A stretch of DNA of 36,271 nucleotides from Kofleriaceae bacterium. Lineage in GTDB: Bacteria; Myxococcota_A; Polyangia; Haliangiales; Haliangiaceae. The stretch covers positions 1-36,271 of the forward strand of contig DASVMS010000944.1 of NCBI GenBank assembly GCA_036384235.1, written 5' to 3'. Positions 22,853 to 28,453 of the stretch are shown piece after piece (positions within the stretch are counted from its first letter, which is position 1; each line of letters begins with the position of its first letter). A model generated the notes under the pieces. It did not search any database. It was not told the DNA's origin and saw only the letters and a program-made list of their open reading frames with translations. A program made the position numbers and the translations under genes.

Positions 22853-24504
22853 AGTCTTTGAGCCCCGCAGCCCGGACGCTACGCTTCGAGCTCCATGGGC
22901 CGTACTCCTCTGTTACGAAGCCTTCGCCAGCTCGCGCGAGATGCGCGGATCTCCAGGCAAACCGGCATCCCCGTCGACGAGCTCGACGACATGCGCGCCG
23001 CGCGCCGGATCTCGCGCCGCGGCCTGCTCGCCGGCGCCGCCGCGGGCGCCGCCTTCCTCGCGCTGCCCAAACGAGTGCGCGCCGCGGAACAGCCGAAGAT
23101 CGTCATCGTCGGCGGCGGCATCGCCGGCGTGACCTGTGCGCTGACCCTCCGCGACCACGGCTTCGCGTCGACGGTGTACGAGGCATCCGGCCGGATCGGC
23201 GGCCGCATGTTCTCGAACAACAGCGGTTACTGGGCGGGAAGCCAGGTCAGCGAGTGGTGCGGCGAGCTGATCGATACCGGGCACCAGACGATCCGGAACC
23301 TCGCCGCGCGATTCGGCCTGCCGCTCGACGATCTCCACGCCGCGGAGCCCAAGCAGTCCGAGGAGGTCTATCAGTTCGGCGGCCAGTACTACCCCAAGGC
23401 GCAAGCCACCGCCGACTTCCTCGCGATGTTCGACGCGCTGCAGGCCGACGTCGACGCCGCGCCATTCCCGACCCTGTTCGACTCGTTCACCGCGGCCGGC
23501 TTCGCGCTCGATCACATGAGCGTCTTCGACTGGATCGAGTCGCGTGTGCCGGGCGGGCACACCTCGCCGCTCGGCCAGCTGCTCGACGTCGCGTACAACA
23601 TCGAGTACGGCGCCGAGTCGCGCGTCCAGTCGTCGCTCAACCTGGTCTACCTGCTCGGCTTCCAGCCGACGGCGAGCCAGCTCGATCTGTTCGGCGAGTC
23701 CGACGAGCGGTTCCACATCCGGGGCGGCAACCAGCAGCTGCCGCTGGCGATCGCCGACGATCTCGGCGCCGACGTCGTCAAGACCGGCCATCGCCTCGTG
23801 CGGCTCGCCCAGACGCCGCACGGCCGCTACACGTGCACGTTCGAGCGCGCCAGCGGCAGCGTCGAGGTCACGGCGGACTTCGTCGTGCTCGCGATCCCGT
23901 TCGCCGTGCTCGCCGATGTCGATACCTCCCAGGCCGGCTTCGACGATCTCAAGAACACCGCGATCGCCGAGCTCGGCCGCGGCCACAACGGCAAGCTCCA
24001 CCTCCAGTTCGAGCAGCGCGGCTGGCGAGGCACCGGCCCGTGGCCCGGCAGCTCGAACGGCTCGTCGTACTCCGACACCGGCTACCAGGCGACCTGGGAG
24101 GTCACGCGCGCCCAGCCGGGCACGCCCGGCATCCTCGTCGAGTACTCGGGCGGCGGCGTCACCGACGGCATGCGCACCGCCTCGCCGTTTGCGACCGCGA
24201 GCGATCCCAAGGTGCAGGAGGACGTGGCGCGCGGGCTCGCCCAGCTGGCGCCGGTATATCCGGGGCTCACCTGGAACGGCAAGGCGACGCAGTCGCTGCC
24301 GCACAAGTCGCCGTTCTTCAACAACTCGTACTCGTACTGGAAGGTCGGCCAGTACACCCAGTTCTCGGGCTACGAGGGCGCCCCGCTCGGCGGCGTGTAC
24401 TTCTGCGGCGAGCACACCTCGACCGACTTCCAGGGCTTCATGGAGGGCGGCGCGAGCACCGGCAAGCAGACCGCGAAGGACCTGATCAAGATCCTCAAGT
24501 AGCG
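22853..24504 (+). repeat. Direct segmental duplication, copy B
   Basis: See copy A (19711..21356). Confidence 0.8.
22895..24502 (+). CDS. Flavin-containing amine oxidase (FAD) with a twin-arginine signal, paralog B
   Basis: Same motifs as paralog A (IVIVGGGIAGVTCAL, ISRRGLLAGAAAGAAFLALP, FCGEHTS). Confidence 0.85.
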   Translation: MGRTPLLRSLRQLARDARISRQTGIPVDELDDMRAARRISRRGLLAGAAAGAAFLALPKRVRAAEQPKIVIVGGGIAGVTCALTLRDHGFASTVYEASGRIGGRMFSNNSGYWAGSQVSEWCGELIDTGHQTIRNLAARFGLPLDDLHAAEPKQSEEVYQFGGQYYPKAQATADFLAMFDALQADVDAAPFPTLFDSFTAAGFALDHMSVFDWIESRVPGGHTSPLGQLLDVAYNIEYGAESRVQSSLNLVYLLGFQPTASQLDLFGESDERFHIRGGNQQLPLAIADDLGADVVKTGHRLVRLAQTPHGRYTCTFERASGSVEVTADFVVLAIPFAVLADVDTSQAGFDDLKNTAIAELGRGHNGKLHLQFEQRGWRGTGPWPGSSNGSSYSDTGYQATWEVTRAQPGTPGILVEYSGGGVTDGMRTASPFATASDPKVQEDVARGLAQLAPVYPGLTWNGKATQSLPHKSPFFNNSYSYWKVGQYTQFSGYEGAPLGGVYFCGEHTSTDFQGFMEGGASTGKQTAKDLIKILK

Positions 24505-24609
24505 GCTTGTCGTCCAGCCCGCGAACGCTCGGCGGACCTCGGGTCCACCCTCCCCAGCTACGGCTCTACGGGTAGCTCGTGTGGGGGGATCAGGATCCGG
24601 AATACTTGA

Positions 24610-25203
24610 CTACCCCGGCCGATCGAGGTCCCGGTCTCCCAGCCACTTCGTCTGCAAAGCCAGCGCCTCGCCAGTCGCGGTGCGGAGGATGAGATCGGGT
24701 TCGCCGTCGCACGCGATCGTCTCGAGTTCGAACGCGCACCAGGCCGGGAACGACGACGTCAGGTGGATCGGCAGGACCCGCAACGCGTGATCCAGGATCT
24801 CGCCGTCGTCGACGAGCACGACGATCGGCGCCTGGCAGGGGCGCGTCGACAGCGCCTCGGCGAGGTAACGACCGACCGCACCGCTGTTGAGGCTCGCGTC
24901 GTTGCGCTCGGTGATCTGCAGCCAACCCGCGACGTCTCGGTACGACGCGCGCAGCGAGCTGAAGAGATCGAACACACGCTTGCGGTTGAGCCGTCCGATG
25001 TCGAAGTACGGGACTGGGCGAAGATCGAACACCCACGACGGCTGCACGCGCGACAGGATCGTCTCGAACCCTACATCAGACACGGAAGACATATCGACGA
25101 ACCCCAACAAGGTCCCCTCGCCGTCTGAACGGGCTGGCTCGGCAAGCTGCTGCGCTGGTCCATCGACCAGGCGAAGGTACGGAACTTGGCTGCTACGCGA
25201 CAT
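24610..25203 (-). CDS. Uncharacterised 197-aa protein, translationally coupled to the deaminase fusion gene
   Basis: The ATG at 25203 lies 8 nt upstream of the deaminase TAG (25195-25193), giving an 11-nt overlap. The longer ORF start at 25281 would overlap by 89 nt and was not preferred. I could not assign a family with confidence. There is only a loose by-eye resemblance to the DUF488-type layout. Confidence 0.6.
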   Translation of the reverse strand: MSRSSQVPYLRLVDGPAQQLAEPARSDGEGTLLGFVDMSSVSDVGFETILSRVQPSWVFDLRPVPYFDIGRLNRKRVFDLFSSLRASYRDVAGWLQITERNDASLNSGAVGRYLAEALSTRPCQAPIVVLVDDGEILDHALRVLPIHLTSSFPAWCAFELETIACDGEPDLILRTATGEALALQTKWLGDRDLDRPG

Positions 25204-26686
25204 CGGTCGGCTTCGGGCCGCCACGTTCGGCGACCGATTGGTCCTCTCGTTCGGTCTGGGCCAACTTCGCCTCGAGTTCAACGTAGCTGACGCGACCGAT
25301 GTACCAAGGAGTGGCCCACGGTGGTTCGGAGATCTTCAGCGTTCCGCTCACGTCGTCCTTGAGATCGCGATCCTTGAGGAAGGCCCGCCGGTACAGTCGC
25401 GGCGCGACGCCGACGAACGGCCGGAACAGAACCTTGTCACCCCCGCGGCTCGGCGGAACCCAGTCGATCGGCTCGGTGGAGATCGCGTCGGGGTGCAGCC
25501 TTGTCGCCCGGCTCTTCGGGTACGGCTCGATGTACTGGACCTCGTCGACACCGGCGGCGACGAGGTGCCGCGCGCAGTAATGGCACGGGTATGTCGTCAC
25601 GAACATCCGGGTCCCAACCGTGGAGGTTCCCTGGCGACCGGCACGCAGCACGGCATCCATCTCGGCGTGCACTGCGCGACTGAACTCGAGGATCTGTCTT
25701 AGGCGGGATCCCTTCAACAGCGTCTGCAGCGCGTCGGGCGCAAGGCTGGTCGCCTTCGCTTCCACCAAGAGCGTGACCAGCTCGTCGATCAACGTATTCT
25801 GCTCCTGCGTGCTGCTGCAGTACCTCTGCTTGTACGCGCACCGGTGATCGCGAGACTCGTCCGCATCAAAGTCCTCTCCGTAGACGCCGCCTCCGGCCTT
25901 CGGGACCTCATTCGTTCCAGTCGAGACGAGATTACCTCGCGGATCGATCAAGGCCGCGCCGACCTGCCGCGACAGGCACGCGCTGCGGATCTGCGCGCCA
26001 TGCGCTGCGTGCATCGCGGTCTCCGCCGGCGTCGGACGCACCACGTCCGAGTGCGTGATGATCTTCACCAGCCGCCGGAGCTGGTCCGGGATCACCCAGT
26101 GCTTGTTCTCCTCGCGGCTGAGCGTGTACCGATCGGTACTATTGTCAAGGAAGATATCGGCTAGGTGGAAAGCATCGGAGACGCGCTGGCCGTACTTTTC
26201 AGCCGCCTTCGCGTCGCGCTCCATGAAGAGCCGGGCGCTCCGCTCCCCGGCGTCGCTGTACTTCTGCTGGATTCGGCGTAGGCGGACGTCCTCGTCGCAA
26301 ACTATCCCGACCAGCACGAACGCCGACTGGTAAACGTTGCGTAGAAGCTCGACCTCCGCCGGGTGGCGGATCGAGTCGAGGATGTACGCGCGGCGCTTGC
26401 CGTCGGGCTCGACCGGCTTGTCGCCGTAGTCAGTGATCCCGCGCTTGCTCGCGCGGAGCTGCCGGACTCGCAGAATCAGCACGCGAGCAACTGCAGCGTG
26501 ATCCCCGCCGTTCCGCATCGAGTCACCGAGGTACTGCAGCTTGGCCACCTCCGAGGTGCCGGAGCCGACGTGGCCGACGACCGCGAACACGAACTCGTTC
26601 GCCGCGCTCTCGCGGATCTCCGTCTGCGAGTTGCGCCCTGCCACAGAATCGGGCTTCCTTCCGAGTTGGACAACGGCCGCCGACAT
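25193..26686 (-). CDS. P-loop-kinase-like N-terminal domain fused to a zinc dCMP/cytidine deaminase domain (anti-phage dCTP deaminase / DcdV-like architecture)
   Basis: The deaminase core is SRQVGAALID..GTNEVP, HAEMDAV and TYPCHYCARH (coordinates about 25574-25669). The N-terminus has a Walker-A-like VVGHVGSGTS and a dNMP-kinase-like YILDSIRHPAEVELLR. ATG 26686 is preceded by AGGA 8 nt upstream. The alternative start at 26839 has no RBS. Confidence 0.8.
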   Translation of the reverse strand: MSAAVVQLGRKPDSVAGRNSQTEIRESAANEFVFAVVGHVGSGTSEVAKLQYLGDSMRNGGDHAAVARVLILRVRQLRASKRGITDYGDKPVEPDGKRRAYILDSIRHPAEVELLRNVYQSAFVLVGIVCDEDVRLRRIQQKYSDAGERSARLFMERDAKAAEKYGQRVSDAFHLADIFLDNSTDRYTLSREENKHWVIPDQLRRLVKIITHSDVVRPTPAETAMHAAHGAQIRSACLSRQVGAALIDPRGNLVSTGTNEVPKAGGGVYGEDFDADESRDHRCAYKQRYCSSTQEQNTLIDELVTLLVEAKATSLAPDALQTLLKGSRLRQILEFSRAVHAEMDAVLRAGRQGTSTVGTRMFVTTYPCHYCARHLVAAGVDEVQYIEPYPKSRATRLHPDAISTEPIDWVPPSRGGDKVLFRPFVGVAPRLYRRAFLKDRDLKDDVSGTLKISEPPWATPWYIGRVSYVELEAKLAQTEREDQSVAERGGPKPTDVA

Positions 26687-26758
26687 CGTGCGAATCCTGG
26701 ACGGTCCAGAGGTTCGCGCACAACCCTGACAAGACGCAAAATCCTCCAAAATCACGCA

Positions 26759-26786
26759 CAGATGCGCGGATCCGCTCTCGCATCTG
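26759..26786. promoter_or_regulatory. Inverted repeat CAGATGCG-(12 nt)-CGCATCTG between patD and the deaminase gene
   Basis: Read directly: an 8-bp perfect stem in the lower-GC 162-bp spacer. It could be a patD terminator or an operator or leader element of the deaminase operon. There is no clear U-tract. Confidence 0.35.
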
Positions 26787-26848
26787 AGCCAAACGAACTC
26801 GCTCTCTTGGCCGCTGAGGCCTTCCGGCACGCGGCTCATACAGTTCAG

Positions 26849-28273
26849 CTACAGCTTGATCATGACGTGACGCACGGCGGTGTAGTCCTCGAGCGCGTAC
26901 ATCGAGAGATCCTTGCCGTAGCCCGACCGCTTGAGGCCACCGTGCGGCATCTCGGAGACCAGCATGAAGTGGGTGTTGATCCAGGTCGCCCCGTATTGCA
27001 GGCGGCTGGCCACGGCCATGGCGCGGCCGACGTCGCGGGTCCAGACGGAGGAGGCGAGGCCGTAGTCGGAGTCGTTGGCCCAGGCCACCGCATCATCGAC
27101 CTCGGTGAACCGGGTGACCGAGACGACCGGGCCGAAGACCTCCTGGCGCACGATCTCGTCGGACTGGAGCGCACCGGCGACGACGGTGGGCTCGTAGAAG
27201 AAGCCCGCGCCGGCGCGGGGGCGGCCGCCGGTGGTGACCTCGACGTGGGCCAGCTGTGCGGCGCGGTCGACGAAGCCCTTGACCCGGTCGCGGTGCGCGG
27301 CGGTGATGAGCGGCCCCATCTCGACGCCCTGCTCATCTTGGGTGCCGAGCTTGAGCGACGCCGCGGCGGCCGACAGGTCGGCGACGAGGCGCTCGTAGAT
27401 CCGGCCGCCGGCGTAGACCCGGCAGGCCGCGGTGCAGTCCTGGCCGGCGTTGTAGAACGAGAACGCGCGCAGGCCGGCGACCACCGCCTCGAGGTCGGCG
27501 TCGTCGAACACGATCACCGGGGCCTTGCCGCCGAGCTCGAGGTGGGTGCGGATCAGGCTCTGGGTCGCGCCCTCGAGGATGTGCTGCCCCGACGCGATCG
27601 AGCCGGTCAGCGACGCCATCCGGACCTCGGGCCGGCGGACGAGCGCGGCACCGACGGTGGGGCCGCGGCCGGTGACGACGTTGAGGACGCCCGGCGGGAA
27701 GATCGCGGCGGCGAGCTCGGCGAGGGCGAGCGTGGTGAGCGGGGTCTGCTCGGAGGGCTTGAGCACGCAGGTGTTGCCGGCGGCGATCGCGGGTGCGAGC
27801 TTCCAGGCCGCCATCATCAGCGGGTAGTTCCACGGCGCGATCGAGGCGACGACGCCGATCGGGTCGCGGCGGATCATGCTGGTCAGGCCGGGCAGGTACT
27901 CGCCGGCGATGGCGCCGGTCATGCAGCGCGCGGCACCGGCGAAGAACCGGAACACGTCGGCGCTCGCCGGCAGCTCGTCGGCGAGCGCGGCGGCGTAGGG
28001 CTTGCCGGTGTTGGTGGCCTCGAGCCGGGCGAGCTCGGCGGCGCGGGACTCGATGGCATCGGCGAGCCTCAGCAGCAGCGCTGCGCGGTCGCGGGGCACG
28101 GTCTGCGACCAGCCGGCGAAGGCACGATGGGCGGCCGCGGTGGCCTGGGCAACCTGGGCCGGCGAGGCCTCGGGGACCTGGGTGATGACCTGGCCGGTGG
28201 CCGGATCGAGGATGTCCTCGGATGCGCCCTCACCTTGGACGAGCGCATCGCCGATCAGGAGGCGTGTGTTCAT
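26849..28273 (-). CDS. patD: Gamma-aminobutyraldehyde (1-pyrroline) dehydrogenase, NAD-dependent aldehyde dehydrogenase
   Basis: 474 aa. From memory, long stretches are near-identical to E. coli PatD/YdcW: [68 protein letters not shown] and [17 protein letters not shown] 28273 was chosen over the ORF start at 28450. Confidence 0.9.
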
Positions 28274-28453
28274 GGGGGCTCCCGCGCCGTCGACGGAGCG
28301 CAAGCATACGCTCGGGCCGCGCGCGGTCGCAACCGGGCGTGAGCGCACGGCCGCACGCGGCGGCAGCGAAAACGCCGGCCGCCGGCCCGCGCGAGTGCGT
28401 GGACCCGAGGTAACGTCGATGTGCCTGGTGTCCCCGCGCAGAAGGAGCACGGT

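Follow-up and report, generated by a model that had tools for sequence, protein, structure and literature searches.

A dCTP deaminase defense gene coupled to a gene for a modular protein of an unnamed family in a Kofleriaceae contig

Introduction

Defense by deoxycytidine triphosphate (dCTP) deaminases is treated as a single-gene system, and the sensing of infection by these enzymes is partly understood, with shut-off of transcription and, in Vibrio, a small RNA as the routes proposed so far. The locus described here raises the question of what a second protein-coding gene, overlapping the end of such a deaminase gene, contributes to it. The window (the whole stretch of DNA that was analyzed, 36,271 nucleotides of contig DASVMS010000944.1 from a Kofleriaceae bacterium) carries a gene for a 497-residue protein with an N-terminal P-loop kinase-like region and a C-terminal zinc deaminase domain, followed by an overlapping gene for a 197-residue protein that we term X. 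The anti-phage dCTP deaminase of E. coli AW1.7 (Tal et al. 2022) has a two-part organization of this kind, of which the kinase-like part is incomplete in the window, with the same HAE and PCxxC motifs. An earlier note on this DNA proposed that X is a regulator, antitoxin, or sensor for the deaminase and that such a gene pair had not been described. No description of the pair was found in the literature searched, most subscription-only papers lying outside its coverage, and the two-gene architecture appears to be undescribed. We find that X near-obligately follows one clade of deaminases, in a fixed order and with overlapping start and stop codons, and we lean, by a little more than an even chance, toward X being the dedicated partner subunit of the deaminase, which would bind it and serve as its regulator or adaptor. 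A clade with an obligate, fast-evolving protein partner would offer a tractable handle on the regulation and sensing of nucleotide-depletion immunity.

Results and discussion

X follows one clade of dCTP deaminases

Seven homologs of X were looked up with their surroundings and in each case a kinase-deaminase of 507-572 aa is encoded immediately upstream, the flanks being otherwise unrelated and including hydrogenase maturation genes in addition to a type I restriction-modification (R-M) gene and an integrase gene (locus L009). In two further look-ups, X adjoins no more than a remnant of the deaminase gene (L007 and L010, below). A larger, X-anchored sample of 120 loci came from a scan of metagenome contigs with the degenerate DNA motif D[LVI]RxxPRFDx5Rx3F, which is a signature of X subfamilies other than that of the window, and here the deaminase gene is immediately upstream of X in 66 of the 68 informative loci. 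For the stand-alone form of X in this sample, a same-strand deaminase gene lies immediately upstream in 39 cases and not in two, with five more that have no upstream DNA. One of the exceptions (L111, 608-2551) has X divergent from a split pair of genes encoding a P-loop kinase (GPFGSGCS) and a deaminase (HAE…PCFQC), which belongs to a different clade. Two viral hits of the degenerate motif were set aside as chance matches. The spacing of the genes is similarly constrained, the start of X falling between -34 and +15 nt from the deaminase stop codon in 80 pairs, most commonly at -11, -8, -4, and -1, and the tight coupling noticed earlier at the one locus is thereby seen to be conserved. Nor is X a housekeeping protein, its homologs being found almost exclusively beside kinase-deaminase fusions.

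The same association is evident when the deaminase is used as the anchor. On IMG/VR contigs, X is downstream of all four deaminases that are at least 48% identical to that of the window (L144-L147, each on a contig classed as viral) and of none of the 19 that are at most 39% identical. Among PLSDB plasmids, the best two deaminase matches, both from Rhizobium (52% and 49%), are each followed by X, and the six at 31-36% identity (E. coli, Klebsiella, Pararhizobium, Zymomonas, Rhodococcus, and Vibrio) are not, even in an unfiltered hidden Markov model (HMM) search. In total, X accompanies 6/6 members of the X-linked clade and 0/25 of the stand-alone clade, in agreement with the earlier statement that single-gene deaminases of the characterized type act as single proteins. 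The two clades are discrete, with a minimum identity of 0.42 within the X-linked clade and a maximum of 0.37 between the clades. The deaminase of the window differs from the single-gene types (those of E. coli, Klebsiella, Vibrio, Zymomonas, and Pararhizobium), to which its clade is no more than 37% identical, in that they lack X whereas its own clade is essentially always followed by it; the window copy further differs in lacking about 50 aa of the kinase-like core.

The two proteins also appear to have been inherited together, as their pairwise distance matrices correlate (r=0.78). X has a mean identity of 27% compared with 53% for the deaminase and evolves about twice as fast, as would be expected of a specificity or regulatory component. 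No third flanking gene is conserved across the loci, none recurring except that of the prokaryotic Argonaute (pAgo) discussed below, and the cassette is self-contained. These data bear on the simplest alternative, in which X and the deaminase are independent defense genes that merely travel together in islands. Defense genes do often co-localize, and the fusions of X to other defense proteins described below could arise by accidental read-through between adjacent systems, but the order is fixed with start/stop overlap in the 80 pairs, the association (66/68 and 6/6) holds across unrelated flanks, the evolutionary distances of the two proteins correlate, and the fusions are of several kinds and have been kept in many lineages. 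Simple co-location is strongly disfavored and we consider it very improbable.

The two-gene architecture is widespread in environmental bacteria. Orthologous cassettes adjoin the type I R-M and integrase genes of L009 and occur on the IMG/VR contigs, and the cassette may travel on prophage-like elements, with X itself absent from the INPHARED collection of phage genomes. In PLSDB, X occurs only in the two Rhizobium plasmids, one of which was recovered by tblastn with an X consensus, the second coming to light only when its locus was searched with the HMM. A scan of GTDB representative genomes with patterns specific to the X subfamily of the window returned a single locus, in a Kofleriaceae metagenome-assembled genome (MAG). 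One of the plasmids, pRheCIAT894b of the cultured strain Rhizobium sp. CIAT894 (L135, NZ_CP020949.1, 7736-9897), carries an intact two-gene cassette encoding WP_085739277.1, named ‘anti-phage dCTP deaminase’ by the Prokaryotic Genome Annotation Pipeline (PGAP), and WP_164517707.1, named ‘hypothetical’. It adjoins ThiF/multiubiquitin and ImmA/IrrE-helix-turn-helix genes and is a good experimental model.

X is a conserved protein family

X could not be placed in a recognizable family when first noticed, and this holds on closer analysis, as it has no match in Pfam, NCBIfam, PADLOC, or PHROG and no relative in the PDB by sequence or profile search. Its 30 close homologs are all unnamed or ‘hypothetical’. 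It is nevertheless a genuine conserved family that is evolving rapidly. Searched with a profile, a set of 1.84 billion representative proteins gave 407 clusters (at 50% identity) with E≤1e-3, 185 of them with E≤1e-10. The open reading frame (ORF) of the window matches the X HMM, built from 162 members, with E=1.4e-60, the residues of the family motif, P..W..D-L-R..P.F…R…F…Y.D…W in an alpha/beta domain of ~170 aa, the gene position, and the overlap all fitting. Ten residues (in window numbering P55, D60, R62, P65, F67, R74, F78, Y88, D90, and W155) are 93-100% conserved in the 162 representatives, with R62, R74, and Y88 at 99-100% and D60, P65, F67, and D90 at 97-98%. The homologs begin at the same M-x-R-S, and for this reason the start of X is placed at the ATG at 25203 rather than at an upstream TTG. 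Compared with X of its closest relative, the Kofleriaceae MAG locus L006, there are 35 synonymous and 32 nonsynonymous differences, indicating purifying selection.

The confident AlphaFold model of X (86-sequence alignment; predicted local distance difference test, pLDDT, 86.9; predicted template modeling score, pTM, 0.82) has an alpha/beta core and a C-terminal beta-hairpin, and the N-terminal tail with its PYLRLV motif is modeled with low confidence (pLDDT ~60). Foldseek returned nothing significant in two runs against the PDB and one against BFVD. The matches were weak throughout (E≥2e-3, template modeling (TM) score ~0.33) and of RecA/KaiC/SRP-GTPase/AAA-like type, the best in the PDB (E=2.2e-3) being to KaiC/RecA/SRP-GTPase-like folds. 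Three candidate relationships were rejected. A motif-level likeness to DUF488 gave no match to PF04343 at E≤10 with 28 and a further nine members and the consensus. Matches to the helix-turn-helix families HTH_23, Sigma70_r4, and Xre-like were weak (E 0.003-0.05, residues ~72-100), and this reading was dismissed because AlphaFold places a beta-strand at ~72-100 and the isoelectric point is variable or acidic. Finally, hhalign found no relationship with the kinase-like domain of the deaminase, of which X might have been a paralog.

The conservation pattern raises the alternative that X is a second enzyme or effector, a small alpha/beta protein of hydrolase- or transferase-like type that would act after the deaminase, on nucleotides or nucleic acids. 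It might, for example, process or stabilize dUTP or dUMP (deoxyuridine tri- or monophosphate) or block rescue by the host, and the two proteins would then cooperate metabolically without forming a regulatory complex. The near-invariance of R62, R74, Y88, D60, and D90 in 162 divergent members is consistent with this, as are the predicted position of the conserved polar residues at or near the C-terminal ends of parallel strands, a typical location for an active or ligand site, and the weak likeness to nucleotide-binding RecA/KaiC/SRP-GTPase folds. However, X lacks a Walker motif and does not significantly match an enzyme family or structure, its 27% mean identity is that of a fast-evolving protein, and in its fusions it is always an N-terminal addition to proteins that already bear effectors (TIR, PIN), which fits a connector better. 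We regard a second enzyme as unlikely.

Fusions of X and the link to short Argonautes

The larger homologs of X show that the domain is modular, in that X stays constant while the modules attached to it vary. About 20 hits are proteins of 620-1139 aa in which X is N-terminal and the remainder is TIR-APAZ (Aga_TIR-PNTD1-PNTD2, E down to 1e-139; Pfam and PADLOC), and a few of these also carry a fused short pAgo. The metagenome sample contains 29 X-TIR-APAZ fusions, of which two lack upstream DNA and the other 27 all have the deaminase immediately upstream, and a short pAgo of ~500 aa comes next in 23 of the 24 that have downstream DNA. The order kinase-deaminase, X-TIR-APAZ, short pAgo is seen at L020, L022, L028, L036, L059, L073, L096, L101, L109, L114, L132, and others. 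The second PLSDB plasmid, pRGM101a of Rhizobium gallicum M101 (L134, NZ_CP092345.1, 263376-268399), has the same three genes, with a frameshift in the deaminase and with the TIR protein annotated from a start that truncates the X domain.

Other modules are also found fused to X. In L138 (P0095, 1519-4155) an 878-aa protein consists of X, GNAT, PIN_3, and an uncharacterized C-terminus of ~400 aa, and its gene directly follows that of the kinase-deaminase with an 8-nt overlap. Two proteins (P0031 and P0011) are fusions of X with DUF2188, a part that matches the PADLOC candidate PDC-S16, and others (P0002, P0016, P0017, P0018, P0025, and that of L006, 1515-2576) have an extension of ~130 aa with faint similarity to DUF6894. 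Both of these types belong to the X subfamily of the window, and X of the window ends just where the extension begins in L006.

The fusions invite comparison with the short pAgo systems known as SPARTA, for which TIR-APAZ and Mrr-TIR-APAZ proteins have been described (PMC9097488, Koopal et al. 2022). X homologs occupy the N-terminus of TIR-APAZ ahead of short pAgo, which is the position of Mrr in Mrr-TIR-APAZ, but X is not an Mrr or restriction endonuclease domain (Pfam, PADLOC) and X-type operons add an upstream dCTP deaminase. Neither that SPARTA study (PMC9097488) nor a pAgo census (PMC6299218) mentions the deaminase or the X domain, and our literature searches, in which subscription-only papers were mostly outside coverage, found no three-gene operon linking a dCTP deaminase to pAgo or SPARTA. 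There is no homolog of TIR-APAZ or pAgo anywhere in the window, which is not a SPARTA system. The three-gene loci (deaminase, X-TIR-APAZ, short pAgo) suggest an Argonaute system with two effectors, and we tentatively propose, at just under an even chance, that X is an unrecognized modular adaptor, that in the fused, three-gene form guide-directed detection of invading DNA by SPARTA would trigger depletion of both NAD+ and dCTP, and that the cassette of the window is the minimal form. X would then be a portable connector domain that is new in bacterial immunity. With present annotation tools the three-gene loci would be taken for two systems side by side and X would have no annotation, so that a model for X would change their classification.

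The N-terminal position of X relative to effectors is also what would be expected if X were a receptor for a nucleotide made by the deaminase (dUTP or a related compound) that switches on the fused TIR-APAZ/pAgo or PIN. Deaminase-generated nucleotide messengers have a precedent in bacterial immunity (10.1101/2024.12.20.629578), and the modeled X is Rossmann-like with conserved residues of the pocket type. By analogy, the Kongming system (KomABC) is likewise a multi-gene system in which a nucleotide deaminase is coupled to an NAD-depleting effector. Kongming, however, is composed of an adenosine deaminase, a HAM1-like protein, and a SIR2-like effector with no sequence relation to X, and the likeness is conceptual only. 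Moreover, most X proteins stand alone and have no output domain (39 short versus 27 fused in the sample), a sensor of nucleic acids is already part of SPARTA, dUTP is a common metabolite, and the characterized family members act by depletion rather than signaling (10.1101/2021.04.26.441389). A receptor role for X is thus rather less likely, in our view, than the already unlikely second enzyme, and neither displaces the regulatory or adaptor partner that we favor.

The deaminase of the window lacks part of the kinase-like core

The deaminase of the window is assigned by profile to the anti-phage dCTP deaminase family, as the earlier note had concluded from its architecture. It matches the PADLOC dCTPase model PDLC02373 with E=2.5e-142 (474 bits), and the zinc deaminase domain typical of the family is present, as shown by Pfam dCMP_cyt_deam_1 (PF00383, E=7e-14) and the HAE and PCHYC motifs. 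The score against NCBIfam NF041025 (anti-phage dCTP deaminase), 396.6 bits, narrowly misses the cut-off of 400, which is consistent with a deletion in the protein. The first-ATG version of the ORF (25193-26839, minus strand) would encode 548 aa, but in an alignment six homologs encoded elsewhere start level with the internal ATG at 26686 (MSxAxVxIG…), and because of this we take the 497-aa protein to be the correct product.

The original description of this protein as a fusion of kinase-like and zinc deaminase domains stands with regard to its length, HAE, PCHYC, and P-loop, but the kinase-like domain is incomplete. The protein lacks about 50 residues that would directly follow the P-loop, a gap that is seen in none of the 47 other non-redundant members of the clade, and the missing segment is conserved in both the X-linked and the stand-alone dCTP deaminases. 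The L006 deaminase, 94% identical to that of the window over the aligned residues, has no gap; nucleotide positions 111-254 of L006 are absent from the window and there is microhomology of a few bases at the junction near 26536-26541. Defense by the E. coli enzyme needs both its kinase and its deaminase domain and is abolished by P-loop mutations in the former (10.1101/2021.04.26.441389), and because of these mutants and the conservation of the lost segment we consider that the window copy may be inactive.

The cassette in the window could accordingly be a decaying relic in which the deaminase is inactivated and no defense is provided, an explanation that applies to this one copy and leaves room for X being the partner of the deaminase in the family at large. 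It is suggested by the uniqueness of the deletion among 48 clade members in a segment conserved in both clades, by the E. coli P-loop mutants (10.1101/2021.04.26.441389), by the NF041025 score just below the cut-off, by other relics (L007, L010, and the frameshifted R. gallicum gene), and by the absence from X of the C-terminal extension present in L006. Set against this, the reading frame is kept and all catalytic motifs are intact, the short form of X is common and normal, and the remaining deaminase gene is under strong purifying selection outside of the deletion, with 83 synonymous and 26 nonsynonymous differences from L006 over 446 codons. The deletion may also be a mis-assembly of the contig. 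We consider a local relic quite possible and not where we would place the weight. While the short-pAgo link raises the interest of the family, the local deletion lowers confidence in the function of the window copy.

Proposed mechanism

We now put forward a hypothetical mechanism for the X-linked deaminases. The first gene would provide a kinase-like/zinc-deaminase effector that, by homology to characterized members, depletes dCTP by converting it to dUTP during infection. X, the product of the second gene, would bind the deaminase and gate its activity, most likely restraining the enzyme until an infection has been detected by X or by the module to which X is fused. X would in this way be a modular connector that wires other immune modules to the deaminase, and SPARTA-type sensors would thereby control dCTP depletion as well as NAD+ depletion. 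The physical binding, the dCTP depletion itself, and whether X inhibits or activates the enzyme are all inferred, and on the last we make no strong commitment.

The logic would be that of DcdV and DifV with a protein in place of the small RNA. DcdV of the Vibrio cholerae VSP-1 island is reportedly restrained by the co-encoded DifV, an upstream small RNA. Both systems have a kinase-like/deaminase effector and a co-encoded factor, and in the window that factor, X, would exert the control. DifV, however, is an upstream small RNA, whereas X is a protein of 170-200 aa encoded downstream and translationally coupled. No Rfam family matched positions 24300-27200, the presence of a DifV model in Rfam not being established, and comparison of leaders likewise gave no signal of a DifV-like small RNA upstream, a divergent, unmodeled one being possible. 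In L009 there are only ~20 nt upstream of the deaminase. The system in the window is not DcdV-DifV.

There is also a resemblance to toxin-first type II toxin-antitoxin pairs, in which a gene for a potentially toxic enzyme is likewise followed by a small, faster-evolving, coupled gene, and the orphan X genes beside destroyed deaminase genes (L007 and L010) add to the likeness. In contrast to such antitoxins, X is a well-folded protein in which polar residues are invariant, lacks a DNA-binding antitoxin domain, and is often fused to large effectors, which is unusual for labile antitoxins. In L010 (722-2839) a gene for a BCS1-like AAA ATPase is followed by a 117-aa ORF and an intact X. The ORF is an internally deleted deaminase relic, in which …RSSCLSRQVGAA is joined to YRRAFLKDR…SYVDLEAKL; it had suggested that the C-terminal tail of the deaminase is a separate module for docking X, an idea that was dropped once the ORF was seen to be a relic. 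In L007 (7877-8576), all that is left of the deaminase gene ahead of X is its final ~39 codons; this contig is a long-read, low-coverage one in which frameshift errors are possible. Two further features of these contigs were noted: that of L010 also has a deoxynucleoside monophosphate (dNMP) kinase (DNMK) gene and a phage-like look, and in L007 X is followed by a convergent amine oxidase gene whose product is 37% identical to that of the window.

Several observations weigh against the partner role of X that we propose. The survival of X beside the destroyed deaminases of L007 and L010 would fit an antidote but would equally fit an independent function. The invariant polar residues D60, R62, R74, Y88, and D90 have the look of a site for catalysis or ligand binding more than of a pure docking surface, and no insertion or segment specific to the X-linked clade was found in the deaminase that could be a docking element. 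The physical interaction of the two proteins is a prediction. At the locus itself, the deaminase copy may be disabled by a deletion in a region conserved throughout the family, and the window does not look like a defense island, the neighbors being metabolic genes.

The locus in the window

The coordinates of the cassette and its surroundings are collected in Table 1. The 11-nt overlap between the deaminase and X genes was read directly from the sequence and is as first reported, as is the position of the pair between an amine oxidase gene and a group comprising an aldehyde dehydrogenase gene (Aldedh) and genes for a solute-binding protein, an ABC ATPase, and permeases. The pair had been described as visibly lower in GC than its neighbors, and it has a GC content of 0.65 compared with 0.69-0.73, and at the third codon position (GC3) 0.82-0.83 compared with 0.93-0.94 in the flanking genes, with a coding-type GC1/2/3 pattern in both genes. 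Homology between the window and L006 is confined to 24614-26638, that is, it ends at the edges of the cassette, and because of this we consider the cassette to be mobile. The low GC3, together with the end of homology to the closest relative at the edges, supports the view that the pair is a foreign, self-contained cassette that was probably acquired horizontally; it had earlier been likened to an accessory insertion. Flanking direct or inverted repeats, tRNA genes, or an integrase marking the insertion were not found in the window.

Table 1. Features of the deaminase-X cassette and its surroundings, in window coordinates
Feature	Position	Strand	Remarks
Amino_oxidase gene	22895-24502	+	Flanks the pair
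Gene X, 197 aa, short form	24610..25203	-	Conserved alpha/beta domain of an unnamed family; from homologs, GC3 of 0.82, and AlphaFold
Conserved core of X, W57-V-F-D60-L-R62-P-V-P65-Y-F67 … R74 … F78 … Y88-R-D90	24934..25035	-	From 162 representatives
N-terminal linear motif of X, P-Y-L-R-L-V (P-[YH]-L-R-L-V)	25165..25182	-	In stand-alone and TIR-APAZ-fused members
Overlap of deaminase TAG (25195-25193) and X ATG (25203-25201)	25193..25203	-	Translational coupling
Kinase-like/zinc-deaminase gene, 497 aa	25193..26686	-	X-linked clade of the anti-phage dCTP deaminase family, by profile
PCHYC zinc-binding motif	25574..25588	-	aa 367-371; PCxxC in 48/48 clade members
HAE catalytic motif of the zinc deaminase domain	25661..25669	-	aa 340-342; invariant in 48/48 clade members
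Junction of in-frame deletion of ~50 aa (150 nt), …SEVAK/LQYLGDS…	26531..26548	-	From protein and nucleotide alignment
Walker-A-like P-loop GHVGSGTS of the kinase-like domain	26552..26575	-	aa 38-45; commonest form in the clade
Leader between aldehyde dehydrogenase stop and deaminase start	26687..26848	-	Hairpin and short shared block
Short block TTGTCAGGGTTGT, ~13 nt	26720-26732	-	~35-45 nt upstream of the deaminase ATG; common to the L001 and L002 leaders
Terminator-like hairpin after the aldehyde dehydrogenase gene	26755-26768	-	In the leader
Aldedh gene	26849-28450	-	Flanks the pair; followed by genes for a solute-binding protein, an ABC ATPase, and two permeases

When the leaders of six orthologous loci were compared, the ~13-nt block was the only element in common, and this among the closest three. 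The block, TTGTCAGGGTTGT, could be a promoter or operator element.

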